Shown one piece after another: positions 18,677-55,500 of a stretch of DNA of 64,000 nt. The notes under the pieces were generated by a model, which saw nothing but the letters and a program-made list of their open reading frames with translations, did no database searches and was not told the DNA's origin. Origin of the DNA: Heterodontus francisci. Its lineage: Eukaryota. A program made the translations under genes and the position numbers. Numbering within the stretch: the stretch's first letter is position 1; every line of letters begins with the position of its first letter. Where the stretch lies: NCBI RefSeq assembly GCF_036365525.1, contig NC_090380.1, positions 109,577,942-109,641,941 of the forward strand, written 5' to 3'.

Positions 18677-18700
18677 AGTTAACAGCTAGTTTAATGTTAC

Positions 18701-18894: not shown

Positions 18895-18982
18895 GGCGTG
18901 CGGTAAGTCCAGTGCAGAGAGGAAGGAGCAGCGGAACCCGAGGGTAATAAGACCTAGTACAGAGGGGAAGCATTGAGAAAAA

Positions 18983-19180
18983 GGTGCCCCCGAACTCCTA
19001 AAAAGCCACGGCCCGGCGCCAGTTGACTCCATCGCGGAACGGCTCCTCGGCCACAACTTCAAAGCGCCTGCAGGAGATGTGAGGCTCGTAGCGCTTCTGC
19101 AGCGCAATGTCGGCGAATTTCTGCTGGTACTGGCTCCCGAGGCTGACGCCCACCTCCCGGAGGACGTGGATGAGCTTTCC
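18983..19180 (-). pseudogene. BCL2: Bcl-2 family (BCL2-like) BH3-BH1 fragment, disabled
   Basis: KLIHVLREVGVSLGSQYQQKFADIALQ...RRFEVVAEEPFRDGVNWRRAVAF*EFGGT aligns to BCL2 LRxAGD..Y...FA.....[21 protein letters not shown]. In-frame TAG at 18998-19000, NWGR to NWRR, no BH4, BH2 or TM visible. Confidence 0.85.
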
Positions 19181-19220
19181 CGGCATCGATGGTGGGAACT
19201 GATGAAATGCTTTATTACCT

Positions 19221-19478
19221 GCACCCCCTTTCCAACCCCTCCCCCACTTCCCCTTCCCAGCTCCCCCATCCCAGCTCACCCCCCGCACCCTCTTCCCCCA
19301 CCCCCTCCCCCCCTCGCAACCCCTTTCCAGCTCCCCCCTCGCACCATCTTCCCCTGCACCCCCTTCCCCTGCACACCTCCCCACCCCCTGCAGCCCCCTT
19401 CCCAGCTCCCCCTCACACCCCCTTCCCTCCTCCCCTCCCCCTCGCACCCCCTCCTCCCAACTGCATCCACCTATCCCT
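19221..19478. repeat. C-rich/G-rich degenerate minisatellite (cccttcccagctccccc units)
   Basis: Unit recurs at ~19251, 19321, 19396; many C3-C7 runs. Confidence 0.85.
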
Positions 19479-22884: not shown

Positions 22885-25800
22885 AAAATCCGGAGCGGAA
22901 CCCCGTAGGCGGTCATGTGTCACCTTTGGCATGTTTCCGGCAGTTCCTGCAGCCATACCGGTGCCAAACGTCGTGCTCTGCACTCCTTTGGACCCCACCA
23001 GAAAGGCCGAGAGGGGGGTTTTGATGCTTGGGCAACTCACAACCTCCATACATTCGCCCAGGCATGCGCCATGGAGATGTCACTCCATAGTCGCCTCACA
23101 GCGACCGAAACAACACGGAAGGCAGCAGTTACGGCTTATAAGTCCAGCTCAATTGGCGTAGAGATTGGACGTCACGGGTTGCCTTTGTCGGTGGGAGAGG
23201 TCATCGCACCTCACTGGACAGCTACCGCCCGCCTCAAACCGGGCAGCCCCCGGTCAATAAGGTTCTGTCCCGCCACAGTCCACCTGCTTCAATGGGTGCT
23301 TGGAGCTCAGGGTCATTGCCCGAAAAGCAGACTGCAACACCGCACCAAACAGCACGAAAAAAGGAAAGAAGGTACCAGCCCTTCGATTTCCAAGCTGGAA
23401 CGTCAGAATTATGTGTCCTGGCCTGTCGGAAGACCTTACACAAATCAACGATTCTCGGAAGACCACCATCATTAACAACGAGCTCAGTAGACTCAATGTG
23501 GACATTGCAGCATTTCAGGAGACACGCCTCCCTGCGAGCGGATCTCTAATGGAGCAAGACTACACCTTCTTCTGACAGAGTAGGGATCCTGAAGAACCAA
23601 GACAGCATGGAGTGGGCTTTTCCATCAGAAACTCTTTGCTCAGCATGATAGAGCCACCTTCAAATGGCTCAGAACGCATACTGTCCATCCGACTGCTCAC
23701 CGCCTCTGGTCCAGTACACCTACTCAGCATCTATGCTCCAACACTCTGCTCCCCACATGAAGATAAAGACCAGTTCTACGAGGAACTCCATAATATCATT
23801 AGTAGCATCCCCAATACCAATCATCTGTTCCTGCTGGGGGACTTTAATGCCAGGGTTGGGGCCGACCATGACTCATGGCCCTCCTGCCTTGGGCGCTATG
23901 GCGTTGGAAGGATGAATGAGAATGGACAGAGACTGGTTGAGTTGTGTACCTATCATAACCTCTGCATCACCAAATCGTTTTTTCACACTAAACCCTGTCA
24001 CCAGGTTTCTTGAAGGCACCCAAGATCACGTCGTTGGCACCAGCTGGACCTCATCGTCACAAGGCGAGCCTCCTTAAACAGTGTTCAAATCACACACAGC
24101 TTCCACAGTGCAGACTGCGACACCGACCACTCGCTGGTGTGCAGCAAGGTTAGACTCAAACCAAAGAAGCTGCATCACTCCAAGCAGAAGGGCCACCCTC
24201 GCATCAACACGAGCAGAATTTCTTATCCACAGCTGTTACAAAAATTTCTAAATTCACTTGAAAAAGCCCTTCAAAAACCTCCGACGCGGGATGCAGAGAC
24301 CAAGTAGGCCCACATCAGAGACGCCATCTATGAGTCAGCTATGACCACCAATGGCAAACATGTGAAGCGGAATGCAGACTAGTTTCAATCTCACTTTGAA
24401 GAGCTAGAACCTGTCATAGCCGCTAAGCGCATTGCACTGCTGAACTACAAGAAAGCCCCCAGCGAGTTAACATCCGTAGTACTTAAAACAGCCAGAAGCG
24501 CTGCACAAAGAACAGCCAGGCGCTGCGCAAATAACTACTGGCAACACCTATGCAGTCATATTCAGCTGGCCTCTGACACCGGAAACATCAGAGGAATGTA
24601 TGATGGCATTAAGAGAGCTTTTGGGCCAACCATCAAGAAGATCGCCCCCCTCAAATCTAAAGCAGGGGACATAATCACTGACCAACACAAGCAAATGGAC
24701 CGCTGGGTGGAGCACTACCTAGAACTGTACTCCAGGGATAATGTTGTCACTGAGACCGCCCTCAATGCAGCCCAGTCTCTGCCAGTCATGGATGAGCTGG
24801 ACGTACAGCCAACAAAATCGGAACTCAGTGATGCCATTGATTCTCCAGCCAGCGGAAAAGGCCCTGGGAAGGACGGCATTACCCCTGAAATCATCAAGAG
24901 TGCTAAGCCTGCTATACTCTCAGCACTCTACGAACTGCTTTACCTGTGCTGGGACCAGGGAGCAGTACCACAGGACATGCGTGATGCCAATATCATCACC
25001 CTCTATAAGAACAAGGGTGACCGCGGTGACTGCAACAACTACCATGGAATCTCCCTGCTCAGCATAGTGGGGAAAGTCTTCGCTCAAGTCGCTTTAAACA
25101 GGCTCCAGAAGCTGGCCGAGCGTGTCTACCCTGAGGTACAGTGTGGCTTTCGAGCAGAGAGATCGACCATTGACATGTTGTTCTCCCTTCGTCAGCTACA
25201 GGAGAAATGCCGTGAACAACAGATGCCCCTCTACATTGCTTTCATTGATCTCACCAAAGCCTTTGACCTCGTTAGCAGACGTGGTCTCTTCAGACTACTG
25301 GAAAAGATCGGATGTCCACCAAAGCTACTAAGTATCATCACCTCATTCCATGACAATATGAAAGGCACAATTCAGCATAGCAGTGCCTCATCAGACCCCT
25401 TTCCTATCCTGAGTAGCGTGAAACAGGGCTGTGTTCTCGCACCCACACTGTTAGGGATTTTCTTCTCCCAGCAGCTCTCACATGCGTTCAAGTCTTCAGA
25501 AGAAGGAATTTTCCTCCACGCAAGATCAGGTGGCAGGTTGTTCAACCTTGCCCATCTAAGAGTGAAGACCAAAGTATGGAAAGTCCTCATCAGGGAACTT
25601 CTCTTTGCTGACGATGCTGCATTAACATCTCACACTGAAGAGTGTTTACGGAAACTCATCGACAGGTTTGCGGCTGCCTGCAACGAATTTGGCTGAACCA
25701 TCAGCCTCAAGAAAACGAACATCATGGGACAGGACGTCAGAAATGCTCCATCCATCAATATTGGCGACCACGCTCTGGAAGTGGTTCAAGAGTTCACCTA

Positions 25801-26591
25801 CCTAGGCTCAACTATCACCAGTAACCTGTCTCTCGATGCAGAAATCAACAAGCGCATGGGAAAGGCTTCCACTGCTATGTCCAGTCTGGCCAAGAGAGTG
25901 TGTGAAAATGGCGCACTGACACGGAACACAAAAGTCCGAGTGTATCAAACCTGTGTCCTCAGTACCTTGCTCTACGGCAGCGTGACCTGGACAACGTATG
26001 TCAGCCAAGAGCGACGTCTCAATTCATTCCATCTTCGCTGCCTCCTTGGCATCAGGTGGCAGGACCATATCTCCAACACAGAAGTCCTCGAGACAGCCAA
26101 CATCCCCAGCTTATACACCCTACTGAGTCAGCGGCGCTTGAGATGGCTTGGCCATGTGAGCCGCATGGAAGATGGCAGGATCCCCAAGGACACATTGTAC
26201 AGCGAGCTCGCCACTGCTATCAGACCCACCGGCCGTCCATGTCTCCGCTTTAAAGACGTCTGCAAATGCGACATGATGTCCTGTGATCACAAGTCGTGGG
26301 AGTCAGTTGCCAGCGATTGCTAGAGCTGGCGGGCAGCCATAAAGGCGGGGCTAAAGTGTGGCGAGTCGAAGAGACTTAGCAGTTGGCAGGAAAAAAGACA
26401 GAAGCGCAAGGGGAGAGCCAACTGTGTAACAGCCCTGACAACCAATTTTATCTGCAGCACCTGTGGAAGAGTCTGTCACTCTAGTATTGGCCTTTTTTGC
26501 CACTCCAGGCGCTGCTTCACAAACTACTGACCACCTCCAGGCGCTTACCCATTGTCTTCCGAGACAAGGAGGCCAAAGAAGAAAAAGAAGA
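22885..26591 (+). mobile_element. RTE-clade (BovB-like) LINE, apparently full length
   Basis: GC-rich 5'UTR, single APE-RT reading frame, (GAA)n tail; TAACAG flanks both ends (22879-22884 and 26592-26597). Confidence 0.93.
23300..26530 (+). pseudogene. RTE ORF (APE + RT + C-terminal zinc finger), nonsense-disrupted
   Basis: ORF pieces 23300, 23612, 24596 and 25724 are in the same frame; SWNVR, LLGDFNARVG, FIDLTKAFD, VKQGCVLAP, LLFADD. Confidence 0.93.
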
Positions 26592-26639: not shown

Positions 26640-26868
26640 AAAACACCCCTATCTTATCAAATCTTACACAGACTTTAGGGGAGGTACCTGCCATCCTTAT
26701 CCAGTCTGGCCTGCATGTGACTCCAGTCCTATACCAATGCAGTAGACTCTTAACTGCCTTTTGAATCAAACCACCAGAAGTTAACCCACCACAACCTCTT
26801 CAGGATAACTGGGGATGGGTAATAAACACTGGCTTTTCCAGCAATGCCCACATCCTGAGAAAAAAACA
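26640..26868 (+). mobile_element. Non-autonomous head+tail derivative of the tRNA-headed LINE
   Basis: gactccag...ctcttaactgcc (leader) joined to gggatgggtaataaa...gcccacatcc + A-tail. Confidence 0.6.
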
Positions 26869-27097
26869 CACAAGGTCCTGCAAATCAAAATTAAATACAT
26901 GAATGAATGAACTGTTATCATGATGATAGTGGAACAAATGTTAGCCAGGACACTGTGAGAACTCTGCTGCCCTCTTCTAATAAGCTGTTGGATCATGGAC
27001 AGGTCCTTAATTTAATGTCTCACTTGACAGAAGACAACACTGTAATGCCAAAGCATCATTCTAGAATATGTTGTTAAGCATCAGAATGGAACCCATA

Positions 27098-27233: not shown

Positions 27234-28275
27234 CCCAAGACCTTTTAACTCAAAAGGGAATACTTTTGTTAAGCCAATGCTGACAACTTAGGATGTATGT
27301 TCAAGGACAAAAAAGCTCTTGAGTTTGGGAACAATGCTGATAAGCTAGTGCAATACTAATAGAATTCAACATTGTCATAGCTACCATCTTTTGAATGACA
27401 GGCTCAATCCTTCGTACCATCATTGGTAGCAGAGTCTTCCGCTGGCTGAGTCCTAGTCTTCAGAATTCATCTTCTCCTCCCTCTTTCCTCCTCCTAAAAC
27501 CTTCTCAATGCCCATGTCTGTGACATAACCTTCAGTCACGCCTCCTAATCTCTCCTTAGTCTCCATCTTCCATGTGGAGCCCCTTGGGCCTTTTTGTTTG
27601 ACATCCAAGGCACTGTCTAAATGCAAGTTGCTGTAATACAATAATGACAAGTTTGGTATTCTGGAGGGATAAATCAAGATAGTCTAAAGGGCCCTTTTCA
27701 TCCAAACCTATGATCTACTGTAAACATAATGCGCCAATGTTCTAGGCAGTGTGCACCTTTTCTGAATGGCCTTACTGATAACCTTTAGCTTGATCCCTTA
27801 TGAGAAAACATTTTGAGTTTAATGATAAAAAAAAGGTTATGAAAGGCATTGTAAGTTATTGTTTGTTCAACGTGATGGTTTCTGCCGAGATAAGGAGGTT
27901 TTGTTAAGTGCACTGCAATGTAAGATAACAGAAACACAGTAAGCTAATTTGCATGAGCTGCTTTTTCAATTCAAAAAATAGGATACGATAACATAGTGGT
28001 TATGTTACTAGACTAGTAATCCAGAGGCCTGGATTAATGACCCAGAGACATGAGCTCACATTCCATCTGCTGGGGAATTTAAGTTCAGTTAATTAAATAA
28101 ATCTGGAATAAAAAGCTAGTATCAGTAATGGTGACCATGAAATTACTGGATTATCATAAAAATCCATCTGATCACTCATATCCTATAGGGAAGGAAATCT
28201 GCCGTCCTTACTGGGTCTGGCCTATTCATGACTCCAGACCCACAGCAATGTTGTGGACTCTTAACTGCCCTCAGT

Positions 28276-29584
28276 GTGACTTAGATGATTTTGATGTGGC
28301 GACCAAATGTAATATTTCCAAATTTGCTGATGACACAAAACTAGGTCGGAAGTAAGTTGTGAGGACGATGCAAGGAGGCTTCAAGGGGACTTGAACAGGC
28401 AAGTGAGTGGGCAAGAACATGGCAGATGGAATATAATGTGAAGAGGTGTGAGTTATCCACTTTGGTAGAAAAAACAGAAAGACAGAGTATTGCTTAAATG
28501 ATGAGAGTTTGGGAAGTGTTGGTGTCCAAAGGGACCTGGGTGTCCTTATTCATGAGTCACTAAAAGCTAGCATGCAGATGCAGCAAGCAATTAGAAAGGC
28601 AAATGGTATGTTGGCCTTCATCACAAGGGGATTTGAGTACAGGAGTAAAGATGTATTGCTGCAATTGTATAGAGCCATGGTGAGACCACATCTGGAGTAT
28701 TGTGTGCAGTTTTGGTCTGCTTATCCGAAGAAGGATATACTTGCCATAGAGGGAGTGCAACAGAGGTTCACCAGACTAATCCCTGGGATGGTGGGATTGT
28801 CTTATGAGGAGAGATTAAGAGATTGAGGGTGGCACAGTGGTTAGCACTGCAGCCTCACAGCTCCAGCGACCTGGGTTCGGTTCTGGATACCACCTGTGTA
28901 GAGTTTACAAGTTCTCCCTGTGATCGCGTGGGTTTTCTCCGGGTGCTCCAGTTTCCTCCCACATGCCAAAGACTTGCAGGTTAATAGGTAAATTGGCCAT
29001 TGTAAAAATTGCCCCTAGTGTAGGTAGGTGGAAGGAGAATTGAGGGAAGGTGGGGATGTGAGAGGGAAAATTGGATTAATGTAGGATTAGTATAAATGGG
29101 TGGTTGATGTTTGGTGTGGCTGAAGGGCCTGTTTTGGTGCTTTATCACTCTATGACTCTAAAATGGCCCCGTATTCTCTAGAACTTCAAAGAATGAGAGG
29201 TGATCTCAGTGAAACTTACAAAATTCTTACAGGGCATCACAGGGTGGATGTAGATAGGATTTTTCCCTGGCTAGTGAGTCTAGAGCCAGGGGACGTAGTC
29301 TCAGAATAAGGTGTAGGCCAGTTAAGATTGAGATGAGGAGGAATCTCCTCACTCAGAGGCTGATGAACCTTTGGCATTCTCTATCCCAGAAGGCTGTGGA
29401 AGCAATCATAGTGCACGTTCAAGACAGATGTCAATAGATTTCTGGACACTAATAACATCAAGGGATATAGGGATAGTGCAGGAAAGTGGCGTTGAGGTAG
29501 ATGATCAACCATGATCTAATTCAATAATGGAGCAGGCTCAATGGGCTGAATGGCCTACTTCTGCTCCAATGTTCCTATGTTCCT
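28276..29584 (+). mobile_element. CR1 LINE 3' fragment inserted in the family-B leader
   Basis: ISKFADDTKLG; ORF 28509..28826; tail atgttcctatgttcct. Confidence 0.85.
28827..29161 (+). mobile_element. V-SINE (HE1-like)
   Basis: A-box TGGCACAGTGG, B-box GGTTCGGTTC, V-domain gtgggttttctccgggtgctccagtttcctcccaca, CR1-type tail. Confidence 0.88.
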
Positions 29585-30687
29585 AAATGTCCTAGCAAAT
29601 CACTCAGTTATATCAAAACCATGACAAAAATCTATAATAAGAGTCAAACTAGATGGATCATCCAGCATTGACTTGGCATAGGATTCAGAGATGACAAAGG
29701 CACACGTCGCCCAGTCAACCCTACAAAGCCCTTCTCACTTACACCTGGGGTATTGTGCAAAATTGGATCGGTGTCCCACAGACAAGTTAAGCAACAGCCT
29801 AACATAGTCACAGTCATCGAATCATAAATTTCAGCCAACATCCAAAATTCCTCCATTACCATCCATGGCTATGTCTTTTCCCAACAGAGGTGGTGGTACA
29901 GTGGTATATAATCAGAAGGGAGTGGCCCTGAGAGTCCTCAACATTGACTCTGGACCCCATGAAGTCTCATGAAATCAGGTCAAACATGGGCAAGGAAACC
30001 ACCTACCACCCTCCCTCAGCTGATGAATTAGTGCTTCACCATGTTGAACACCACCTGGAAGAAGGCACAGAATGCACTCTGGGTAGGGGACTTCAATATC
30101 CATCACCAAGAGTGGCTCGGTAGCACCACTACTGGCTGAGGGTCTGAGTCCTGAAGGCCGCATCTGCCAGACTGGGCTTGTGGCTGGTGGTGAGGGAAAC
30201 AACAGGACAGGAAAATCCTACTTGACCTCATTCTCACTAATCTACCTGTCGCAGATGTATCTGTTCATGTCAGTATTGGTAGGAGTGACCACCGCACAGT
30301 CATTGTGAAGAAGCAGCCTCCATCATGTTGTGTGGCACTACCATCATGTTAAATGCAATAGATTCAGATCAAAACTAGCACCTCAAAACTGGGCATCCAT
30401 TAGGAGCTGTGAGCCATCAGCAGTACTTCACCAAAATCTTTAACCTCATGGCCCAGCATATCCCTCAGTCTACCATTATCCTCCGGCTCCACAAATATTT
30501 TCATGCTCAATGATGGCAGAGACAAGCATATCAGTGCAAAATAAAAGGTTGAAGCATTTGCAACCATGTTCAGCCAGAAGTGCCAAGTGGGTGATCCACC
30601 TTGGCTTTTTCCTGAGGTCCCCAGCATTACAGGTACCAGTCTTCAGCCAATTCGATTCTCTCCAGGTGATATTAAGAAAGGACTGAA

Positions 30688-31275
30688 CATAGAACATAGA
30701 ACATAGAACATAGAACATACAGCACAGAACAGGCCCTTCGGCCCACAATGTTGTGCCGATCCTTTGTCCTCTGTCAAGGACAATTTAATCTATACCCCAT
30801 CATTCTCCTTTATCCATATACCTATCCAAAAGCCTTTTGAAAGTCCCTAAAGTTTCTGACTCAACAACTTCCCCGGGCAAGGCATTCCATGCCTCGACCA
30901 CTCTCTGGGTAAAGAACCTTCCCCTGACATCCCCCTTATATCTCCCACCCTTCACCTTAAATTTATGACCCCTTGTAACGCTTTGCTCCACCCGGGGAAA
31001 AAGTTTCTGACTGTCTACCCTATCTATTCCCCTGATCATCTTATAAACCTCTATCATGTCACCCCTCATCCTTCTCCTTTCTAATGAGAAGAGGCCTAGA
31101 ATGTTCAGCCTTTCCTCGTAAGACTTATTCTCCATTCCAGGCAACATCCTGGTAAATCTCCTCTGCACCCTCTCCAAGGCTTCCACATCCTTCCTAAAAT
31201 GAGGCGACCAGAACTGCACACAGTACTCCAAATGAGGCCTTACCAAGGTCCTGTACAGCTGCATCATCACCTCAC
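30688..31275 (-). mobile_element. Young 5'-truncated CR1
   Basis: Uninterrupted ORF 30800..31270; (CATAGAA)n tail; 7-bp TSD GACTGAA at 30681-30687 and 31276-31282. Confidence 0.92.
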
Positions 31276-31485
31276 GACTGAAGCTGCAAAGGCTGTGGGC
31301 GCTGACAATATCCCAGCTGTCGTTCTGAAGACTTGTGCTCCAGAACTTGCTGCAGCCTTAGCCAAGCTGTTCCAGTACAGCTACAACACTGGCATCAACC
31401 CGACAAAATGGAAAATTTCCCAGGTATCTCCCGTCCACAAAGAGCAGGACAAATCCAATCAGGCCAATTACCACCTCAAGAGTCT

Positions 31486-32312
31486 TGTGATGGAGTCCTT
31501 GTGTGCAGATTGCATTCTATACTGCTGACCTGCTGAATGAACCGTTATGTGCGATGACTTTGGGATTCAAAGCTTGTGTTTTTTCTGCGACAATCATTTG
31601 CTGGAAAAGGAAACTGAAAGCTAAAACATACAATCTTCTGATCAGAGGTGTGACAAGAGACATGTGACTGAAACTCAGGTTTCAGGTTAGAAGAATACTC
31701 TGCAGTGGGTGGAAGGCAAAAAAAAGCCAGCTGTTGCTTTTAAGAGACAATCTGGAAGCTGTTGGCAGATGCAGGCTGAGGAGATCGGACTCTGAGAGCT
31801 GGCCATTGATGGATACAAATTATGGCAGCTATTTCTGGTGACTTAAAGAGTTATCAATGGAACCATGCATTAAACCTGTTGTGGGTGAGGTTGAGGCTGT
31901 TCGACAGGTGATAAGACAGAACCGTTAAAGAGAAGATTACATCTCTCGCTATCAACGGGACATCATAACTTCCTTATCTGCATCCTGAACGACAGGACTT
32001 GGAAAGCTTGGAGGTTCCTGATCTTGATGCACTTTGGGACTGTTTGGCACCCTCTTGCTGATAGGACTGCTCAGAAGATTCCTTAGGACTATCTTCGTTG
32101 CATCTGATAATTAATGCGTAACCTTTAAGATATTCATCACAAACATGATTTAACTGTTAGTTTATGCTTAATTTATGCTGGTTTTGGTTTGAGTGTTAAA
32201 GTAAAATTTATAAAAGTGAGATCTTGTCTGTTCAGTTTTTGTTTCCTAAATTAAGGCCAGTCGGTGGATTTGATTCTTTTTTTTGTTGGTGATCTCCACG
32301 GGGATCATAACA
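31486..32312 (+). mobile_element. Solo LTR (Gypsy-type)
   Basis: TGTGAT...ATAACA termini; 4-bp TSD GTCT (31482-31485, 32313-32316); splits the host RT motif NYxPISLLS. Confidence 0.8.
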
Positions 32313-33058
32313 GTCTGCTCTCAATCATCAGCAAAGTGGTGGAAGGTGTCATCGACAAGGCTATCAAGTGGCAGTTACGTATCAATAACCTGCACACTGA
32401 TGCTCAGTTTGGGTTTCGTCAGGACCACTCAACTCCAGAACTAAATATAGACTTGGTCCAAACATGAACAAAAGAACTGAATTCCAGATGTGAGGTGAGA
32501 GTGACTGCCCTTAATATTAAGGCAGCATTTGACAGAGTGTGGTATCAAGTCAATAGGAATTAGGGGGGAAACTCTTTACTGGCTGGAGTCATACCTAGCA
32601 CAAAGGAAGATGGTTGTGGTTGTTGAAGGTCAATCATCTCAGCATTAGGACATCACTGCAGGAGTTCCTTAGGGTAGTCTCCTAGGTCCAACCATTGTCC
32701 ATTGCTTCATCAATGAACTTCTGTCCATCACAAGGTCAGAAGCAGGGATGCCCACTGATAATTGCACGGTGTTCAGTACTATTTGGAACTCCTCAGATAA
32801 TGAAGCAGTCTGTGCCTGGACAACATTCAGGCTTGGGCTAATGAGTGGCAAGTAACATTTGGGTCACACAACTGACAGGAAAAGATAGAATCTAACCATC
32901 TCCCCTTGTCATTCAACATTTCCATCAATGCATCCCTCATCATCAACATCCTGCGGATTACCACTGACCCGAAACTTACCTGGTGCAGCCAAAGGCTGGG
33001 AATCCTGTGGTGAATAATTCACCTCCTGACTCTCCACCACCTTAAATATTCACTCCCT

Positions 33059-34198: not shown

Positions 34199-35734
34199 TC
34201 CTCCACAACTGGTGCACAGTGGCAGCAGTCTTTACCAACTACAAGTTGCACAGGAGCAACTCACCAAGCCTCCTTCAACAACACCTTCCAGACCTGTGAC
34301 CCCTACCACCTCGGACAAAGGCAGCAGGCAGATGAGAAAACCACTACCTGCAAATCCCCTCCAAGTCACTCACCATCCTGACTGGGAAATATATTGCTAT
34401 TCCTAACGGTCTCTTGTCAAAATCCTGGAAACCTCTCCCTAACAGCACTGTGGGTGTACCTACACCACATAGACTTTAGCAATTCGCAAAGGGGGCTCAC
34501 CAGTACGTAGAAATAGGTAATAAATGCAGGTCTTGCCAGTGACACCCACGAACAAAGAAAAAAACATTGTTCTTTATATCTAAAGGTGAAGTTAGTGCAT
34601 AGGAGGAACAGCTCCAAGGAAATTTCTAACCAAGTACTTCAAAATTAACAAACAGACATTCTAAGAGGCTTACAGAGGTCAAAACGAATAAAACTTCAGG
34701 AAATAATGCATCTATCCTCAAGTACAAGAGAAATTAGCATGTGTGAACTATCATTATGTGGTTGAATGAGCACTGGGGACAGCCTACCTGATCTCTCATT
34801 ATCTTTAAGAGCAGGGGAGTTCTCTCGGGTGCTCTGGCCAATATATATACCTTGACCAACATTACTCAATGTAAGATTGTCTGGTTATGGTTACATTATT
34901 GTTTGTGAGGCCTTGCTGTGCACAACTTGACTGCAGCTTTTCCTACTTTATAGCAGTGATCACACTGCAAAATGCTTTGGGACATCCTGACGTCATGTAA
35001 CGTGCTGCAGAAATACAAGTTTTTTCTTTCATCCACTAGATCGGAAATAAGCTAATGTAGCAACCACATTCAAGAAGACACATGCATATGTTTGAGAAAC
35101 TCTAGGTCCATTGGTCTCATCTCAAATAATAAAATCAATCATCAAGAGAAAACATGAGGACCATCTGTACTTAATGGAAAGGGAAATTTGGGTTGGGCTC
35201 ATAATTTGCGACTGATCTACTTCCAGTTTTCCATTTCAACGAAAGTTGAAAATGACCCCTTGCATGATTTGTTCACTATATTCAGTGGTGTAGGGGCAGT
35301 TTTAGAAGTGTGTATATACTCTGCATCATGCACAAGTTTTATTTTCTAGGGAGGAGGGGACTGATTTTATTTTACATACGTATACTATATTGTTTAAAAG
35401 GTTTCCTGATGTGCAAAAACATGTCCCACAATTAAAACATAGAAATAGGGTTCTTGACTGGTTAGTGAGCTTGTCCAGTTAATTGCTGGGCCTGAGAGAC
35501 AAGCCAGTGATGTAGCTAACTGACCACCATTAATAACCAATCACCACAGTCCACTGGTGAACAGCCAACACAACTGCAACCAGCAAATGACCAGTTGCCA
35601 GCCACTCTTAGAAGCTAAACATCCATGGCTTGCCTTCTAGCCATCAAACACTAGATGTTAACCAGTGATCACAAACACCCAGTCACCCCATCAGCTAGAG
35701 AAGCTAACTTCCACCAACCGCAACTATCAGTGAA

Positions 35735-40420: not shown

Positions 40421-41329
40421 CTATAAGATTATCATGCATTAATTTTCTAATAATTGTTTTACTGATTCATTTATCGATATACTGTTATGAGGATAAGACT
40501 CTGTCTTTGACAATGTTGTAATCTGAGTAATTCTAAAATGCAAACCATATGTTTGAACAAACGTTTCTGTTCCGTTGGGTCATCTTAGGGAAGTACTTGG
40601 CATTAATGAGTAACTGAAACTTGTGAATCACATCAGCAATTACTATTGTCTGCAAAAGGTTAATGTATTAAGTTAATAAATGTAACAATGGGTGTGGACA
40701 AAAATGATTAGGCTAATTGAGTCAGATGACCAACACTTTGGGGGCATAAAAGAAGGGGGATTTAACAGTCAGAAACAGAGTTCGAAAAGAAGGAGAAGAC
40801 ATTTAGCTTGTGTGGGTGGACATAATGTTAGCAGGAGCCTAACAGTCACCTATCTAAAGAACAATACAACCTGTGGTACTCTGTCCAATTTTCAACAGGT
40901 GATACATAATATGTTTGGAACTGTAAATTACTGCTAAACACTGTAATGTGTTAATCTCTGCTGTGGGATAATAAAAGAGATTTACCACAACCAACTGGCG
41001 TCAGGTCCAGAATTCCCGCAAGTGCAACACCTCAGACAGCGCAAGAGTCCCAGCAGAGGACACTGGAGTGTCAGCTTTAACTCTTGAACTCCATTTTCAG
41101 GAGGAGACACACTCACAATCTTCTACCTCAGAGAGAAGAGTGCCAGCAAATGAGCCACAGCGGACACTTAACTACAATAACAGTTAGGCTGAGTGCCATT
41201 GAGTTAGGGAGAGGAAATTATCTAAGGCTCCTACTCTCGATCAATGTCCAGTGCCCCCGTCAAAAGATACATGTGTACAGGTCAGGTGAGGATCGCATTT
41301 GGTTTGGTTGTGACACCCTCAATGTTAAT

Positions 41330-43335
41330 TTTTTTAAATTCATTCATGGAATGTGGGTGTTGCTGGCCAGGGCAGCATTTATTGCCCATCCCTAATTGCC
41401 CTTGAGAAGGTGGTGGTGAGCTGCCTTCTTGAACTGATGCTATCCATGTGGGGTAGGTACACCCACAGTGCTGTTAGGAAGGGGGTTCCAGGATTTTGAC
41501 CCAGCGACAGTGAAGGAACGGTGATATAGTTCCAAGTCAGGATGGTGTGTGACTTGGAGGGGAACTTGCAGGTGGTGGAGTTCCCATGCATTTGCTGCCC
41601 TTGTCTTTCCAGTTGGTAGAAGTTGCAGGTTTGTAAGGGTGCTATCTAAGGAGCCTTGTTGCATTGCTGCAGTGCATCTTGTAGATGGTACACACTGCTG
41701 CCGCTGTGCGCGGTGGTGGAGGGAGTGAATGTTTGTAGATGGGGTGCCAATCAAGGGGACTGCTTTGTCCTGGATGGTGTCGAGCTTCTTGAGTGTTGTT
41801 GGAGCTGCACCCATCCAGACAAGTGGAGAATATTCCATCACACTCCTGACTTGTGCCTTGTAGATGGTGGACAGGCTTTGGGGAGTCAGATGAGTTACTC
41901 GCTGCAGGATTCCTAGCTTCTGACCTGGTCTTGTAGTCACGGCATTTATATGGCCACTCCAGTTACATTTCTGGTCAATGGTAGCCCCTAGGATGTTGAT
42001 AGTGGCGGATTCAGCAATGGTAATGTCATTTAATGTCAAGGGGAGATGGTTAGATTCTTTCTTGTTGGAGATGGTCTTTGCCTGGCACTTGTGTGGCACA
42101 AATGTTACTTGCCACTTCTCAGCCCAAGCTTGGATATTGTCCAAGTCTTGGTGCATTTCTACACGGACTGCTTCAGTATCTGAGGAGTCACGAATGGTGC
42201 TGAACATTGTGCAATCATCAGCGAACATCCCCACTCTGACCTTATGATTGAAGGAAGGTCATTGATGAAGCAGCTGAAGATGGTTGGGCCTAGTACACTA
42301 CCCTGAGGAACTCCTGCAGTGATGTCCTGGAGCTCAGATGATCGATCTCCAAAAAGCACAACCATCTTCCTTTGCGCTAGGTATGACTCCAACCAGCAGA
42401 GGGTTTTCCCCCTGATTCGCACTGACTTCAGTTTTGCTAGGGTGCCTTGATGCCATACTCGGTCAAATGCTGCCTTGATGTCAAGGTCAGTCACTCTCAC
42501 CTCACCTCTTGAGTTCAGTTCTTTTGTCCATATTTGAACCAAGGCTGTAATGAGGACAGGAGCTGAGTGGCCCTGGCGGAACCCAAACGGAGCGTCACTG
42601 AGCAGGTTATTGCTAAGCAAGTGCCGCTTGATGGCACTGTTGATGACACCTTCCATCACTTTACTGATGATTGAGAGTAGGCTGATGGGGCGGTAATTGG
42701 CCAGGTTGAACTTGTCCTGCTTTTTGCGTACAGGACATACCTGGGCAATTTTCCACATTGCAGGGTAGATGCCAGTGTTGTAGCTGTACTGGAATAGCTT
42801 GGTTAGGGGCGCAGCAAGTTCTGAAGCAGAGGTCTTCAGTACTATTGCCGGAATATTGTCAGGGCCCATAGTCTTTGCAGAATCCAGTGCCTTCATTCGT
42901 TTCTTGAAATCACGCGGAGTGAATCAAATTGGCTGAAGTCCGGCATCTGTGATGCTGGGGACTTCAGGAGGAGGACGAGATGGATCATCAACTTGGCACT
43001 TCTGGCTGAAGATTGTTGCAAATGCTTCAGCCTTATCTTTCGCATTGATGTGCTGGGCTCCCCCATCATTGAGGATGGGGATATGTGTGGAGCCACCTCC
43101 TCCAGTTAGTTGTTTAATTGTCCACCACCAATTATGGCCAGATGTGGCAGGAGTGTAGAGCTTAGATCTGATCCATTGATTATGGCATCGCTTAGCTCTG
43201 TCTATTGCATGCTGCTTACGCAGTTTGGCACTCAGATAGTCCTGTATTGTCGTTTCACCAGGTTGACACCTCATTTTGAGGTATGCCCGGTGCTGCTCCT
43301 GGCATGCTCTCCTGCACTCTTCATTGAACCAGGGT
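41330..43335 (-). mobile_element. CR1-group LINE family B, 5'-truncated
   Basis: ORFs 42924..43427, 42159..42896 (NYRPISLL, DIKAAFDRVWH, GVPQGSVLGP), 41440..42234 (MFADD). Confidence 0.9.
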
Positions 43336-44322: not shown

Positions 44323-45194
44323 TGTATCATGAGCCCAGAAATTGAGTCGAGGAAGCTTCACAGCAGGAATTTTGAGCTGTGAATGATGTGAGGCCTTTTA
44401 TTCAGTTTCCGACATTAAATCACAGTGCTCAGGTCTCCCCGAGCAGACGCACCTGCCACTGGCCCCTCCTCAGCACCCACAGTATGAAGTACGAGAATGT
44501 CTGGCAGCCCTACCCAGGGGCCACACTGAACGGACCTGCCAATGTTGGAACCCGGCTGCCATTCCTAATTGGACAGGCCTCCCAGAGGTGTTTTCTTAGT
44601 TGGCTGCCTCCGGGAAGATTGTGTCCGACATCCTGCCATGGCCACTTCTGGATTCCTGACCTGGAATTGAGCTTGCCATCAGGATCGCGACACACCTACC
44701 CAGGAAAATTCAGCCCCTGATCTCTATCTTGTCAGTACTCACACATTTATTTTTTACCTCAACTGTGTCTTTTTTTTGTGCCAAGAATTCGCATTAGTCT
44801 GCTGATGCCCATGTTTGCCCAGAATCTGCTTGCATCTAATGCAATTACAGAATTTTCAATTGGAGATTACTCTGTTATGCAATACAGCAGCAAGAACTCT
44901 GCCAGCTCTCAAATGAGCCCATCTCTACGTGATCTCATCCAAGCCCTCATAAAAGGGTTCTGAAGCAAAATGCAGGCCATCTGAACAACGATCGAAGGCC
45001 TTTGTGTCAGGTTGCATTGGTAGCCCTCTCGTCTCTGAAGCAGAAGGTTTTGATATAAAAACACTTCTTGGTATTGAACAGACAAATTAGGCTGAGGCAT
45101 CAATGTTATACCCAGAGAGCTGCATCGATAGAAGCATGATAACGAAGGGCCTGTTTCAGTGCTGTATCTCTAAATTGAATAAATAAAATAAAAA

Positions 45195-45513
45195 ATACAA
45201 GAAGCACTGCAGCAACTCGCCAAGTCTCCTTTCGCAGCATCTTCCAAACCGCATCCTCTACCACCTAGAAGGGCAAGGGCAGCAGACACATGGGATCATC
45301 ACCACCTGCAAATTGCTGTCCAAGTCACACACCATCCTGACCTGTAAATATGTCACTGTTCCTTCACTGTCACTTGGTCAAGATCCTGGAACTCCCCTCC
45401 TAACAGCACTGTGGGTGTGCAGCTCACCACCACCTTCTCAAAGGTAATTCGGGATGGGAAATAAATGCTGTCATTGCCAGTGATGGTCACATCCCACGAA
45501 TGAATAAAAAAAA
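45195..45513 (+). mobile_element. 3' end of the family-B LINE, inverted relative to its body
   Basis: tacaagaagcactgcagcaac is the expected continuation of the body ending at ~46188. Confidence 0.75.
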
Positions 45514-45860
45514 ACTTAAAACATATTATCTGGTCATGTATCTCATTGCTGTTTGTGGGACTTTGCTGTTGTGTTTTCTACAACAGTAACTAACTTTTGA
45601 TGTTCTTCATTGTCTGTGAAGTGCTTTTGGAGGTCCTGAGGTCATGAAAAGTGCTATAGCAATGCAAGTTCTTTCTTTCCTAAATAACTGCAGACATTAC
45701 AAAGTATGATATAATATTCAGTTATACATCCTATATAGTTTGGTCAAATGGGCCTTTCTAGTGCTTAAAATTTCTTATGTATTAGTTGGATATGGGCCGA
45801 ATGGACTCCTTCTATGCTGTAAATGGCTCTATGATTCAGGTAACAACCTTACGTTCATTA

Positions 45861-46187
45861 TTTTTTTTTTATTTAGAGATACAGCACTGAAACAGGCCCT
45901 TCGGCCCACCGAGTCCGTGCTGACCAACAACCACCCATTTATACTAATCCTACATTAATCCCATATTCCCTACCATATCCCCACCATTCTCCTACCACCT
46001 ACCTACACTAGGGGCAATTTACAATGGCCAATTTACCTATCAACCTGCAAGTCTTTGGCTGTGGGAGGAAACCGGAGCACCCGGTGGAAACCCACGCGGT
46101 CACAGGGAGAATTTGCAAACTCCGCACAGGCAGTACCCAGAACTGAACCTGGGTCGCTGGAGCTGTGAGGCTGCGGTGCTAACCACG
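45861..46187 (-). mobile_element. V-SINE (HE1-like)
   Basis: Reverse complement of the 28827 element, with A-rich tail. Confidence 0.88.
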
Positions 46188-48962
46188 GTATATGGTACAC
46201 ACTGCTGCCACTGTGTGCCGGTGGTGAAGGGAGTGAATGTTGAAGTTGTGGATGGGGTGCCAATGAAGCGGGCTGCTTTGTCCCGGATAGTGTTGAACTT
46301 CTTGAGTGTTGTTGGAGCAGCACCCATCCAGGCAAATGGAGAGTATTCCATCACACTCCTGTCTTTTGCCTTGCAGATTGTGGACAGGTTTTTGGGAGTC
46401 AGGAGGTAGGTTACTCACCACAGAATTCCCTGTATCTGACCTGCTCTTGGAGCTATTGTGATTATGTGGCTGGTCCAGTTCAGTTTCTGATCAATGATAA
46501 CCTCCAGGATGTTGATGGTGGGGCATTCAGCGATAATGATCCTGTTGAATGTCAAGGGACATGGTTAGATTCTCTCTTGGTGGAGATAGTCATTGCTTTC
46601 CACTTATGTGAATTAGATGTTTCTTACCACTTATTAGCTCAAGCCTGAATGTTGTCCAGGTCTTGTCGCATTTCTACACAGACTGCTTCAATATTTGAGG
46701 AGTCGCGAATGGTGCTGAACATTGTGCAATCATCAGCGAACATCCCCACTTCTGACCTTATGATTGAAGGGAGGTCATTGATGAAACAGCTGAAGATGGT
46801 TGGGCCTAGTACACTACCCTGAGGAACTCCTGCAGTGATGTCCTGGAGCTCAGATGTTTGACCTCCAACAATCACAACCATCTTCCTTTGTGTAAGGTAT
46901 GACTCCAACCAGTGGTGAGTTTTTCCCCTGATTCCAGTTTTGCTAGGGCTCCTTGATGCCATACTGTCAAATGCTGCCTTGATGTCAAGGGCAGTCACTC
47001 TCACTTCACCTCTGGAATTCAGCTCTTTTGTCCATGTTTGGACCAACGCTGTAGTGAGGTCAGGAGCCAAGTGGCCCTGGCTGAACCTAAACTGAGCATC
47101 AGTTATTAGCAAGTACAGCTTGATAACACTGTCCACGATACCTTCCATCACTTTGCTGATGATTGAGATTAGACTGATAGTTTGGTAATTGGCTGGGCTA
47201 GAATTCTGCTGCTTTTTAATGGATAGGACATACCTGGGCAATTTTCCACATTGCCGGGTAGATGCCAGAGCTGTAGCTGTATTGGAAAATCTTGGCGAGG
47301 GGCGCAGCTAGTTTTGGAGTACAAGTCTTCAGCACTACAGTCAGAATGCTGTCAGGGCCCACAGCCTTTGCTGTATCCAGTGCAGTCTAGTTGGAACCCT
47401 TGGAGGAAGCTGAGATGGATCTTTATTTGACACCTATTGCTGAAGATGGTTGCAAATGCTTCAGCCTTGTCTTCTGTACTGATGTGATGGGATCCCACAT
47501 CACTGCGGATGGGGATATTTCTGGAGCCTCCTCCTCCAGTTAGTTGTTTAATGGTCCGCTACCATTCACGACTGGATGTGGTAAGACTGCAAAGCTTTGA
47601 TCTGATCCTTTGATTGGGGGAATCGCTTAGTCCTGTCTATAGCAGGCTGCTGCTGCTGTTTAATATGCGTGTAGTCCTGTATTGTTGCTGCAGCAATTGG
47701 CGCCTCATTTTTAGCTATGACTGGTTCTGCTCCTGGCATATTCTTCTGCACTTCTCATTGAACCAGGGTTGATCCCCCGGCTTGATGGTGATGGTAGAGT
47801 GAGAGATATGCTGGACCATAAATTTACAGATTGTGGTGGAATACAATTGTGCTGCTGCTGATGGCCCACAGCAACTCATGGATTCCCAGTTTTGCATTGC
47901 TGGATCTGTTCTGAATCTATCCTCTTTAGCAAAGTGGCAGTGCCACACAACATGATGGAGGGTATCCTCAGTAGAAAGACTGGACTTCATCTCCACAAGG
48001 ACTGTGCAGTAGTCACTCCTACCAATACTGTCATGGATAAACATATCTCCGATTGATAGATTGGTGAGGACGAGGTCAAGTAGGTTTTCCCTTGTGTTGG
48101 TTCCCTTACCACCTGCCGCAGGCCCAGTCTGGCAGATATGTCCTTTAGGACTCGGCCAGCTCGGTCAGTAGTGGTGCTACTGAGCCACTCTTTGGTGACG
48201 GACATTGAAGTTCTCCAGCCAGAGTACATTCTTTGCCCTTGCCACTCTCAACGCTTCCCTCCAAGTGGTGTTCAGCATGAAGGATTACTAATTTATCAGC
48301 TGACAGGGTGGGGTAGGTGATAATCAGCAGGAGGTTTCTTTGCCTCTATTGACCTAATGCCATGACATATAGTAGTGGGACAGGACATACCCAGGGATGG
48401 TGATTGTGGTGTCTGGGACATTGGCTGTAAGGTATGATTCGGTGAGTATGACTGTGTCAGGCTGTTGCTTGACTAGTCTATGGGAAAGCTCTCCCAATTT
48501 TGCCACAAATTCCCAGATGTTATTGAGGAGCACTTTGTAGGGTTGACCGGGCAGGGAGTGTCTTAGTTGTATCTAGGGCCTAGGTCAATGCTAGGTGGTC
48601 CATCTTTTGCATACTTATTTGACTTTTTTGTAGTCATTTTATCTGACAGAGTGATTTACTAGGCCATTTCAGAGTCAACCACATTGCTGTGGGTCTGGAG
48701 TCAGATGTCAGCCAGACCGAGTAAGGGTAGCAGATTTCCTTTTCTGGAGGACATTAGTGAAGCTGATGTGTTTTTTCTTTACAACAATCTGATTGTCCCA
48801 TGGTTACCATTACTAAGACTAGCTTTTTATTCCAGATTTATTTAATTCATTGAATTTAAATTCCCCTGCTGCCATGGTGGAATTTGAACTCATGTCTCCA
48901 CTGTATTAGTCCAGACCTCTGGATTAATAGTTTAGTAGCATATCCCCTGTGCTACCGTGCCC
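46188..48962 (-). mobile_element. tRNA-headed CR1-group LINE family B, 5'-complete
   Basis: A-box TAGCACAGGGG (~48944-48954), B-box GTTCAAATTCC (~48879-48889), APE start NIWEFVAKLGEL...DTVILTE at ~48525, RT ORF 46639..47241. Confidence 0.85.
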
Positions 48963-48964
48963 TC

Positions 48965-49210
48965 AACCATGTTGGTTTAGGGATAGCTATTGGCCAGGTA
49001 ACTCCCCCGCTCTTCTTCAAAATAGTGCCATGGGATCTTTGATGTCCATCTGAGTAGGTAAATAGGGCCTCAGTTTAACACCTGATCCAGAAAGCTGGCA
49101 CCTCTGACAGTGCAGCAATCTCTCAGTACTGCACTGCAGTGTCTGCCTAGGTTATGTGCTGAAGTCTCTGGAGTGGCACTTATGGCCTTCTGACAGAAAG
49201 GCAATAGTGC
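48965..49210 (-). mobile_element. Deu-domain SINE 5' half (host of the family-B insertion)
   Basis: Deu core ends where the LINE head begins; a 3' half lies at 45515-45680 (+). Confidence 0.7.
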
Positions 49211-49844
49211 CTAACTAGCTGTATTTTGTATTTGCTTAATATAATTGTCCTTAAGGCTGTCACAAACTGGAGGAGAAAATTCTTGGACTCTGTGTTTGAT
49301 CATTTGTAATGGAATGACTTTTACGTATTCTGAAAAAGACATCAATTGTATCTTTGTACAAAAATTGGTGGCATTGAGAGATAGAGATTTTAGAAATGAA
49401 CCTTGGAGAAAAAAAAAAGCTGTAAATTGAATGAAAAAAACCTGGAGAAATAGTATTTTTTTGTCAGGCAGGGATATTAAAGGTTACGGAACCAAGGTCA
49501 GTGAATGGAGTTAAGATACAGATCAGCCACAATCTAATTGGAAGTGGAACAGGCTCCAGGGGCTGAATGGCCTTCTCCTGCTCCTACATTGAACAAGAAA
49601 ATGAGACAATTCAATTGGAGTGACTGGGTTAAACAGTGTCCCATTGTGGAACTGGGTAAGTCATCGTGTAAACATCTGCACTAAGGGAGAATAAAACAAT
49701 GACAGTCAACTTTGATAATACTTTATTATAAACAAATTAGACAGATAAGCAGATCCGCCAAGAATAAGAAAAGGTTATGGATGCATAAATCTGCAAGTGT
49801 CCTTTTCAACTCATTGAGATAAGCAGAGGGGTGAACTATAAAAA

Positions 49845-52519: not shown

Positions 52520-55500
52520 ACTGGCTTTATCCCAGTCATGTGGATATTCATGACAGTATGTTCTAATCATCGCTTTGAGAGTCTGGTGAAATCTCTCTCA
52601 AGCTCCCTGTGATTGTGGGCGATATGCTGAAGATTTCAACTGTCTAATCCCCAAATTGCCCATGACTTCTTGAAATGTCCTAGATATGAAATTAGAGCCT
52701 TAATCTGATTGAACGTCTAGTGGCAACCCATAGCTCGTAAAGAATTGGATTAACGTTTTGACTACTACTCTAGCAGTAATTGTCCTCAAAGGAATGGCCT
52801 CTGGAAATGGAGTAGCCATATCCATGATAGTAAGTATGTATTGTTGCCCTGCTTTTGTTTTGAGCATGGATCCTACACAATCTACGAATACCCTGCTAAA
52901 TGGTTCCTTAATCACTGGTATGGGAACTTGTGGTGCTGGCTTTATGGTAGGTTGTGGTTTTCCCACCACTTGACAGGTATGGCTTGTCCTATAAAATTGT
53001 CTCACATCCTTTGTAAGACCTGGCCAGTAATAATGTTGGCTTTTGCATGATTTGGTCTTCCAAATCCCCCTATGTCCTGCAAAAGGAATTTTGTGTGCTA
53101 ACCTTAATAATCCTTGGCGATATTTAGCTGGTACCACTATCTGTTCAACAACTGTTCAGTCTTCATGGGCAGGCCTATGAGGCGGTCTCCATTTCCTCCT
53201 CAAAACCCTGATGGCCATATAATAGCCTTCCAGAACTCCTTTCACCTCAGCTCCTGACAGAGCCATCTGTGCTATTTGGTATATCTCTGGATCAGCTTGC
53301 TTAGCTGCAATGATGGATGATCTGTTAAACGTCTCATTTGGATTATCTAAATCCCCAAATATGGTTTCAGATACTTGACTATCTATTTGTTGTACCCCCT
53401 TTACCTCTGACAATGGATCCTGTTCAGCCATTGCTTGGGCAACAACACACCACAGGAAATATTCCTGGAACTTGTTCCTGTAATTGCTCAGTTTCCTTAA
53501 TTTCACTTGGTTCCTCTGTAATTATAGGAGAAACTGATACTTTTGATCCAGCCAAATCATTTCCTGAGAGTAGATCAATTCCCTTTACTGACAAACTGTG
53601 GACAACTCCTACAGTTACTATCCCAGATATTAAGTCACTCATTAGGCATGCTTTATACAAAGGTACGGGTATATACTCCCCGCCAATTCCATTAACTAAA
53701 ACTTTAGCATTCAAGGCACTCTCTAGTGGAAACCTCATATCTTTACCCAGCAAGAATGTTTGGGTTGCTGCTGTGTCCCTGAGTATAATGATAGGTTTTC
53801 CTGCCTCACTTACAGGATATGGAGTTACTCTCCCCTTTGACATCATTATAACTCTCAGGTATTTTGTTCTTAACCCCTACACTCACTCTAGTTTTAGTAT
53901 CTGGTTTTACAGCTGTTGTTAAAGCTATAGCCTCGTCTGCTATACACTCAATGAGAGTCCTTTCTTCTGCACTAGCCTTGTGTACCCCAACAAGTCCTAT
54001 GCCTTTTTGACCTGAGGAGGTAATCCTGGGTCATTCTCGGTTGTTTCTTCCTGTCCCCGGCTACTTGCCTTCCTTTCAATCTCCAACTTTCCTTCTCGGC
54101 TTTATGGGGGTGACGGACAAAAGAGGTTAGCTTATTCACAAGCTCAAAATCACAGCAATTTCTGCTGCTTACCGAGCTTTCAGAGCTTTCAGGTTATCTA
54201 TATGAGTTCTCACTACCGAAGGAATGGCGTTTTTAAACTCTTCTAAGATAATCAATTCTCATATCTCTATCTCTATCTCTAACGCCCATATCCAACGGTC
54301 AAAAGTAATTTGCTTTGCCCTCTCAAATTCTAAATATGTCCACCCAGCCAATTTTCATAAGTTCCTAAACTTCAGGGACTAACTCATACGCAGCGAGAAT
54401 AGCCTTTTTTGCCATTTCATAATCTACACAAGCTTCTTCGGGAAGTATGGCATAAACTTCATGAGCTCTGCCTACCAACCTGCCCTGCATAAGCAGTGTC
54501 CAGCTTTCTTTCAGCCATTTCATCTATTTGCCTATTTTATCAATAGATATGAAAAATACCTATATGTCCCTTTCCTCGAACCTAGGAAGAGCCTGTATAA
54601 ATTTAAACAACTTTTTGCTGGGTCCTGAGCTAAATTCAGATTCTTCCTGACCTGAATTTTCCCTGGATTCAAGACTATCCTTTAGTTTTAGTTCCATCTC
54701 TTTTAACTTAAATTCCCTCTCTTTCTCCCTTTCCTCTTTCTGGAATTCAAGCTTAAGTCTTTTCAATGCTATTGCTGTTTCTTTATCTTGTTCAAGTTTT
54801 CTTATTGTTTCTTCTTTTTCTTTTTCCCTTTCCTCTTTTTCCAATTCAAGTTTTCTTAATTCCTTTTCAGCCTCAAGTTTTTTCATTTCGAACTAAATCC
54901 TAGCCAATACCACTGCATCACTCTCTGGCCTACTACTTTCTTGTTCCTCATATTCTCCTTCATCAAATTCTTCTTCTTCTAATTCCAGACGTTGGGCTAT
55001 TATGTCAATTATCTCTGCTTTTTTGGCACCTAATTTCAATTCCAACCCCAATTTCACTGCCAATTCTTTTAACTTGTTCTTAGTTAAAGTTATCAAGTCA
55101 CTTAGGGAAATATTCTGCTTTCCCCAAAACTCTGCTGCAATCACTAATGCCATTACAATGGTATAGACTGTACCTTATTTTACAAGAGACCTGGTTCTTT
55201 TTATTTCTTTGTAATTGGCATTAGATTTAGATCCCAACAATAGAGTTTCCAATTTCCCCCAATTTAAATGTGTTATCCCAGAAACGAGTAATTAATATGA
55301 TTCTAAATGCCGACCTTTCAAATTAGTCTGATTCTGATCCCAGACGCGAGCTGCTTAATTAAAATATGATTCAATTGCGCGCGAGCCTCCAATTAATATG
55401 TTACAACACGACTGCTCAAGACAACGCCCCCAATCATAATATATGATTCTGATTGTGGTAGGAGCAATGCACTGTCAATTCAGTCCCGTCACTCCATAGA

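Follow-up and report, generated by a model that had tools for sequence, protein, structure and literature searches.

A tRNA-like head with A and B boxes on the single-ORF Zenon LINEs of sharks and rays: a candidate Pol III promoter on a coding retrotransposon

Introduction

CR1 LINEs usually carry an internal Pol II promoter and encode ORF1, and heads with an A box and a B box are typical of SINEs. A locus of Heterodontus francisci, in which a head with both boxes stands at the 5' end of a CR1-group LINE, raises the question of whether a long, protein-coding retrotransposon may be driven by a promoter of the tRNA type. Reviews assign LINEs to Pol II and SINEs to Pol III, and take Pol III to set a limit on element length (PMC10886601).

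The window, that is, the whole stretch of DNA that was analysed, comprises 64,000 nt of the forward strand of the H. francisci assembly GCF_036365525.1 (NC_090380.1, 109,577,942-109,641,941), and the coordinates given below are positions within it. The analysis of individual copies rests on the three decayed Zenon copies of the window (A, B, and E).

Results

Copy A, which is read on the minus strand, belongs to the single-ORF Zenon LINEs known from sharks and rays; it is full-length but decayed, with all its parts present, yet rearranged. It opens with a tRNA-like head (48870-48962) that comprises the A box, the B box, an anticodon-like arm and an extra arm of ~20 nt, followed by the remaining 5' leader (48537-48869), made up of an A-rich tract, a core (about 48760-48655) that is nearly invariant across shark and ray consensuses, and a linker. 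The decayed APE and RT coding region (46188-48536), identified by profile, by tree and by a Pfam match (RVT_1, E 3e-19), contains many stops, frameshifts and deletions. A younger SINE (45858-46189, minus strand; 89.6% identical to a copy at 28834-29026), presumably V-SINE/HE1-like, lies within the Zenon 3' region. The 3' end of copy A was located by self-comparison and read joints in inverted orientation at 45196-45514 (plus strand; poly(A) at 45506-45514), preceded by a duplicate of the last ~49 nt of the younger SINE (45143-45191); the lower limit of 46188 that the initial annotation assigned to the element is therefore wrong. The A-rich tract (48850-48820, minus strand) holds two AATAAA hexamers ~120 nt into the leader and could be the remnant of a donor SINE's tail.

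Profile matches to APE and RT run in sequence order from 48545 down to 46170 and span frameshifts. The APE profile, built from 16 full-length relatives, matched from its position 12 at 48545 (iE 4.7e-9); Pfam alone found the RT and missed the broken APE pieces. The homologue of the KVLL-N-IW motif begins at 48536, 427 nt from the 5' end of the head, in agreement with the initial annotation, which had placed the APE start ~440 nt from the 5' end with no room for ORF1. An esterase (Lipase_GDSL_2, E 1e-8) was found in the CR1 at 1-2462, as expected from the ORF1 attributed to it earlier. The closest named match of the Zenon RT is a protein of Mobula birostris (70% identical over part of the query); other matches are ~45-52% identical, and many of them are APE-RT ORFs of 930-1,060 aa on contigs of 3.1-3.7 kb. 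In an RT tree of 67 rows (49 of the best 120 matches, 14 of 80 loci and 4 window sequences), copies A and E grouped with the Mobula birostris protein (support 100/100) inside a clade (99/98) with butterfly, beetle and Hydra proteins, and the canonical CR1 of the window fell outside; the tree holds no labelled Zenon reference protein, and the Zenon label comes from the match of the leader to named consensuses. The Zenon RT is 37% identical to that of the canonical CR1. The element showed neither the esterase ORF1 nor the placement in the vertebrate CR1 clade that characterize canonical (HER1-like) CR1, and displayed the traits of Zenon, namely an RT grouping apart from CR1, no ORF1, a poly(A), and APE and RT in one ORF. 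Four tails in the window end in (ATGA)-like units and A-rich runs. In the accessible part of the survey by Stuart et al. (2026; PMC13343379), the Zenon elements of elasmobranchs, coelacanth and hagfish are universally without ORF1 and with poly(A); the lack of ORF1, which had been taken as an oddity of this locus, is thus already on record for every Zenon element surveyed, and ORF1 in trans is not needed.

Copy A splits an older SINE, here called SINE X, the insertion target of the Zenon unit. Its 5' half (48969-49221, minus strand) ends at 48969 and its 3' half (45515-45698, plus strand) resumes at 45515, directly after the poly(A) of copy A. SINE X is presumably Deu/SacSINE1-like. In five of the six intact copies of SINE X the halves meet at 315|317, 334|336, 164|167, 173|179 and 304|312; the sixth aligns poorly at the split. 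Since the two halves abut within a few nucleotides, head, APE-RT and tail were inserted together. No target site duplication is visible around copy A, and 6 extra nt precede the head. These nucleotides (48968-48963) are the reverse complement of the hexamer just upstream in intact X copies, either a fold-back addition or chance.

Raw reads connect 46188/46191 with 45199/45196, the two sides lying on opposite strands (1,063 and 934 reads, with ~200 start places each), and because these joints are seen in reads from other copies of the family, the tail at 45196-45514 belongs to copy A; its inversion would be later than the insertion. Within 45143-45858 the Zenon tail and one half of SINE X appear to have been inverted locally, with the 49-nt duplication of the younger SINE's end at the breakpoint; this may be a real rearrangement or an assembly artefact. 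Read depth, measured with capture-library reads at 80% likeness to the decayed copy, was ~22,000 near the 3' end, about 2,800-3,500 at the APE and 1,500-2,500 in the leader, a profile that fits 5' truncation with no sign of a separate high-copy head.

The initial annotation had noticed two copies with the same leader, and both were recovered: copy A starts at 48962 (minus strand) and copy B at about 27981 (plus strand), with 298 nt aligned at 75.5%. The head and leader of copy B (27981-28272) are followed by a nested CR1 fragment (28273-29585), past which the copy resumes at 29586 (73% over 302 nt) with the head-APE junction as in A and continues through the leader end, APE and RT to 33035 in three pieces (29586-30690, 31280-31478 and 32305-33035); a tail piece at 34200-34545 may also belong to it. 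The insertion of ~830 nt in copy B (31479-32305), with no other match in the self-comparison of the window, is possibly a solo LTR. Copy E (41325-43335, minus strand) is a third copy, truncated at the 5' end, with RT, tail and poly(A). Two short elements have no head: in element C (11575-11846, minus strand) the leader core is joined directly to a Zenon-type tail, and in element D (26688-26870, plus strand) to a longer tail piece. The leader-tail joins of C and D lie at different points, and both elements have in common about four diagnostic bases that are absent from A and B, by which they look like an older short family. They are candidates for a Zenon-partner SINE or SIDE family, which may be either the donor SINE or a derivative. 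Among the 15 read joints listed of 5,346, none was of the short leader-tail form.

Other features of the window include two RTE-like LINE copies (23230-26590, plus strand, and 15638-16500, minus strand) that are 92% identical over 756 nt, the longer being near full length, and broken gag, protease and integrase fragments, presumably Gypsy-like, recognized in ORF translations at 52700-54892 (minus strand). A stop-free frame of 192 codons beside a G-rich tract (18697-19275, minus strand) reads like an exon or a gene fragment.

The A box of copy A (TAGCACAGGGG, 48954-48944) and its B box (GTTCAAATTCC, about 48891-48879) are both present on the minus strand at the positions where they had been annotated. 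In copy B the A box is near-canonical (27989-27999) and the B box is decayed. The window contains three A/B-box pairs, compared with 0.33 per shuffled window; a single pair is by itself weak evidence, and all three stand at repeat heads, namely the Zenon head of copy A and two SINE-like heads. At a threshold of 90%, the sole tRNA-like call of ARAGORN in the 64 kb was the head of copy A (48961-48870), with a cloverleaf-like fold, and none of 1000 shuffles of this head was called. At 85% there were 9 calls in the window, and the accepted SINE heads of the window were called only at thresholds of 75-85%. The head of copy B gave no call down to 70%, and default settings yielded no call either in the window or in the 60 of 80 metagenome loci scanned. 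A relaxed search (90%) of the 80 metagenome loci (284 kb) returned 2 calls near LINE-like ORFs (L011:382-473 and L055:1023-1105), which may be chance. In Rfam, the head of copy B had only a non-significant tRNA match (14.6 bits, E=1) and that of copy A had none, in a search that also missed a control SINE head.

The head of copy B contains a 5-bp stem with the loop CUAGUAA, a loop that by itself suggests a tRNA-Thr(AGU)-like head; the extra arm of ~20 nt resembles a tandem duplication. Copy A has an imperfect acceptor stem, the stem is not conserved among the consensuses (by eye), and folds of the whole leader were unremarkable (z -1.1 for copy A and -2.5 for copy B). Overall, the element has the A/B-box head at the 5' end that marks tRNA-derived SINEs (SINE2), and at ~3.3 kb with APE-RT it is neither short nor non-coding as these are. 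A 22-nt leader motif had no matches in viral, prokaryote-genome and metagenome collections.

Published consensuses were compared over their first 400 nt, by eye. All seven elasmobranch Zenon consensuses, from five species (great white, whale shark, catshark, dogfish with three, and stingray; 2,886-3,314 nt), start with the A-box/B-box leader. The A box fits TRGCNNAGTGG in 7/7, with variation only at the degenerate positions, six of the seven B boxes are intact, that of HypSab being one base short, and the sequence between and around the boxes differs while the boxes are kept. The window copies are closest to the dogfish (SquAca) type of leader, AATAAA hexamers occur in the leader of six of the seven consensuses, and across species the leader core is more conserved than the head. 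When the first 400 nt of 1,003 CR1-group consensuses were searched for two B-box strings, as exact strings only, six occurrences were found, 6/6 in elasmobranch Zenons. By eye, the first 400 nt of the three hagfish and coelacanth consensuses, the ends of which may be mis-bounded, show no such head and contain T-runs in all three, and the exact A box was present in 0/80 metagenome LINE loci. From its absence in these consensuses and loci, the head looks like an elasmobranch acquisition that predates the shark-ray split, which is placed roughly at 250-300 Ma.

Two observations could have spoken against the earlier proposal that head and LINE spread as a unit, a consensus reaching 5' into an ORF1 and a head-APE junction differing among copies. 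In the published genome-wide consensuses (2.9-3.3 kb) the head comes first, with no ORF1 upstream of it, and the junction is the same in A, B and 7/7 consensuses, so that, together with the split of SINE X, the proposal stands. Copy numbers run from 59 to 2,313 per consensus among the rows listed of Table S3 (PMC13343379, accessible part). The terms tRNA, promoter and polymerase III have no occurrence in the main text of PMC13343379, and the leader motifs matched no described SINE domain in the paper texts and the hagfish SINE supplement that were searched, though the leader may still be identical to a SINE body named elsewhere. The tRNA-like head is apparently an undescribed trait in the literature searched. 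The idea that the leader is SacSINE1/Deu was dropped: the tail of SacSINE1 is described as L2-type in the accessible part of PMC5499810, and the leader matches the Zenon consensuses.

HypSab_Zenon-1 is the sole consensus whose first 400 nt cover both the AUG of the leader and the APE start. This AUG, conserved in six of the seven consensuses, opens in HypSab_Zenon-1 and in copy A an ORF of ~46 codons, which overlaps the start of the APE in a different frame, with the same frame offset in both (by eye in HypSab_Zenon-1); in copy A the short upstream ORF is decayed and was placed at 48473-48612 (minus strand) by three-frame translation. Consensus differences fall mostly at third codon positions of this ORF (48612-48473; by eye), a hint of translation. 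In both sequences the APE frame has a stop upstream and no in-frame AUG; relatives have an in-frame Met near the APE motif. The lack of an in-frame AUG implies that initiation is non-canonical (by frameshift or at a non-AUG codon) or that the consensus carries a shared error, and no conserved slippery heptamer was seen by eye among the consensuses. This translation puzzle neither proves nor excludes Pol III.

Vertebrate Pol III stops at runs of four or more T (T4+). The sense strand of the Zenon copies contains 5 such runs in 7,755 nt, compared with 16.2 expected from base shuffling (P=0.001), and the comparison elements contain 44 in 10,813 nt (CR1) and 9 in 4,224 nt (RTE), the rates differing from that of Zenon with P=1e-6 and 0.026, respectively. 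In pairwise alignments of the Zenon copies (6,106 columns) 0 sense T4 were shared and 8 were private, and the corresponding figures were 20 and 29 for Zenon antisense T4 and 16 and 75 for CR1 sense T4; for 96% of the body of copy A, a second copy was there to compare. No T4 was seen by eye in the first 400 nt of the seven consensuses. Runs of T3 were depleted under both codon-aware nulls (P=0.006 and <0.001), and third-position T stood at 0.34 after T versus 0.49 elsewhere for Zenon, with corresponding values of 0.59/0.63 for CR1 and 0.33/0.38 for RTE. A single T4 was observed in the coding pieces, with 4.3 (P=0.034) and 3.2 (P=0.11) expected under the codon-aware nulls. Under dinucleotide shuffles the depletion of T4 was not significant (P 0.23-0.87 per segment), and the canonical CR1 at 1-2033 likewise has only 2 T4.

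As positive controls, SINE X (decayed, 29% T) had 15 T4 in 2,513 nt versus 13.4 expected, with shared and private runs numbering 4 and 43, and the younger SINE had 2 versus 2.5 expected. Since these decayed SINEs show no depletion of T4, T-run counts are not diagnostic of Pol III here, and the test is consistent with Pol III at most. Five metagenome relatives of the same RT clade carry 49, 33, 42, 5 and 5 sense T4. The presence of T4 in clade relatives together with the A box in 0/80 loci suggests that the scarcity of T-runs goes with the head, but two of the five relatives are also T4-poor, which argues against such a link.

Discussion

Copy A belongs to Zenon, was inserted as one unit, and carries a head that is family-wide, with conserved boxes and few T-runs in the sense strand. 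The best reading is that such an element is a single-ORF LINE, autonomous and driven by a captured Pol III promoter, a reading that from the available sequences may be held with about as much belief as doubt. The complete scenario, in which Pol II would have been replaced by a tRNA-derived Pol III promoter, terminators would have been purged from a 2.8-kb frame and uncapped RNA would be translated without an in-frame AUG, across hundreds to thousands of near-full-length copies, is proposed tentatively and at slightly under even chances. The head would have been gained before the shark-ray split, by a template switch from an ancestral Zenon to the RNA of a tRNA or a tRNA-SINE. With TFIIIC bound to the boxes, transcription by Pol III would begin at the head's first G, so that every full-length copy would regenerate the promoter, the head acting as internal promoter for the whole ~3.3-kb RNA. 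Selection would purge TTTT from the sense strand and termination would take place at the first T-run in the 3' flank, as for SINEs. Translation of this uncapped RNA would be non-canonical, with the short out-of-frame ORF and the conserved core of the leader as candidate elements, and its insertion would be the work of APE-RT through target-primed reverse transcription, with ORF1 not involved. Several points count against transcription by Pol III. The AATAAA located ~40 nt before the poly(A) of the Zenon tail is as expected for a Pol II RNA, non-LTR retrotransposons are held to be transcribed by Pol II, Pol III being length-limited (PMC10886601, accessible part), and an uncapped RNA that lacks an in-frame AUG would be hard to translate.

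Alternatively, a tRNA-SINE head may have been captured by an element that is still transcribed by Pol II, its mRNA arising from the leader core or by host read-through, and the boxes may be kept as a TFIIIC-bound boundary or enhancer, or the family may have stopped evolving soon after the capture. This is less likely in our judgement, although it accounts for capping and translation, agrees with the 3' AATAAA and poly(A), with the more conserved leader core and with SINE controls in which T4 content is non-diagnostic, and finds a parallel in the lepidopteran, Zenon-derived Persaeus, whose 5' end derives from the Zenon 5' UTR and which, in the accessible part of PMC6740152, is without a Pol III promoter. 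An internal Pol II promoter would, however, have to start at the first base of the head in order to regenerate it in every consensus; moreover, box positions are kept across the shark and ray lineages where neighbouring bases have changed, no sense T4 is shared over 96% of the body, and AATAAA hexamers stand inside the leader of 6/7 consensuses (by eye). HDV-like ribozymes define the 5' ends of R2, RTE and Ingi. By analogy with the ribozyme-defined 5' ends of six LINE clades (PMC5786205), the head might instead be an RNA-processing signal, a read-through host transcript being cut (RNase P-like) at the tRNA-like fold, which would set the precise 5' end of the family and suits the cloverleaf-like fold of copy A; this seems improbable, since it is the promoter boxes that are conserved and not the imperfect acceptor stem, the scarcity of T-runs is not predicted, and the leader folds are unremarkable.

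The initial annotation also considered an element that borrows ORF1 in trans. A non-autonomous chimera that lost ORF1 and relies on that of canonical CR1 would fit the lack of an in-frame AUG before the APE, the short out-of-frame upstream ORF, which could be an ORF1 remnant, and the presence of esterase-ORF1 CR1s in the same genome, but it likewise appears improbable given that surveyed Zenons of all phyla are without ORF1, that in many relatives APE-RT ORFs of 930-1,060 aa fill contigs of 3.1-3.7 kb, and that the element lies outside the canonical CR1 branch. A chance neighbourhood of a free SINE and a 5'-truncated LINE, which the dense nesting of repeats in the window and the short leader-plus-tail elements C and D might suggest, retains hardly any probability: it is refuted by the split of SINE X and by the consensuses, in 7/7 of which, as in two copies, the junction is identical, and the read depth of the leader (about 1,500-2,500) is not above that of the APE (2,800-3,500).

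The closest known elements are SquAca_Zenon-1/2/3 and the CarCar, RhiTyp, ScyCan and HypSab_Zenon-1 consensuses, which have the same leader (by eye) and, in the accessible part of PMC13343379, ~3.3 kb with APE and RT, a poly(A) and no ORF1. The Zenons of invertebrates, hagfish and coelacanth, with the SIDE Persaeus, share the RT clade, the single ORF, the poly(A) and short, internally deleted derivatives (PMC6740152, accessible part); elements C and D resemble SIDEs such as Persaeus. Unlike the shark and ray Zenon, Persaeus is described there as having no tRNA homology. SINEs derived from tRNA, and bipartite SINEs that contain LINE-derived parts (Bov-tA type; Kojima, 2018; PMC5786205), fuse an A/B-box tRNA head to LINE-derived sequence, as here, but these SINEs are short and non-coding, with middles derived from RTE or Vingi, whereas the Zenon head leads a full CR1-group APE-RT element. 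The nearest precedent found is RTE-1_DAn and relatives, LINEs to whose tRNA-like sequence PMC5786205 devotes a single sentence; they belong to the RTE clade, and that paper does not say where the tRNA-like part lies or what it does. TRIMp3 elements (Cassandra, Helenus and Ajax) are retroelements with a Pol III promoter derived from a small RNA, in which they are like the Zenon head, and, unlike Zenon, they are non-autonomous LTR elements of 0.3-1.3 kb without coding capacity (PMC10886601, accessible part).

Conclusion

The feature is real and the family is known, and the head is a trait that apparently has gone undescribed; new here are the host SINE split by the unit, the tail confirmed by reads and a controlled T-run analysis with a failed positive control. 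Even if the element were transcribed by Pol II, it appears to have gone unremarked that a major LINE family of vertebrates has a conserved tRNA head. The family is large, with 59 to 2,313 copies per consensus among the rows listed, so that annotations of SINEs or tRNA pseudogenes in shark genomes may wrongly include thousands of these A/B boxes. If the Pol III reading is true, this 3.3-kb coding LINE with its type 2 Pol III promoter would represent a natural long Pol III mRNA, would break the rule that assigns LINEs to Pol II and SINEs to Pol III, and would provide a model for cap-independent translation, and modules would have flowed from a SINE or tRNA to a LINE, opposite to the usual direction.
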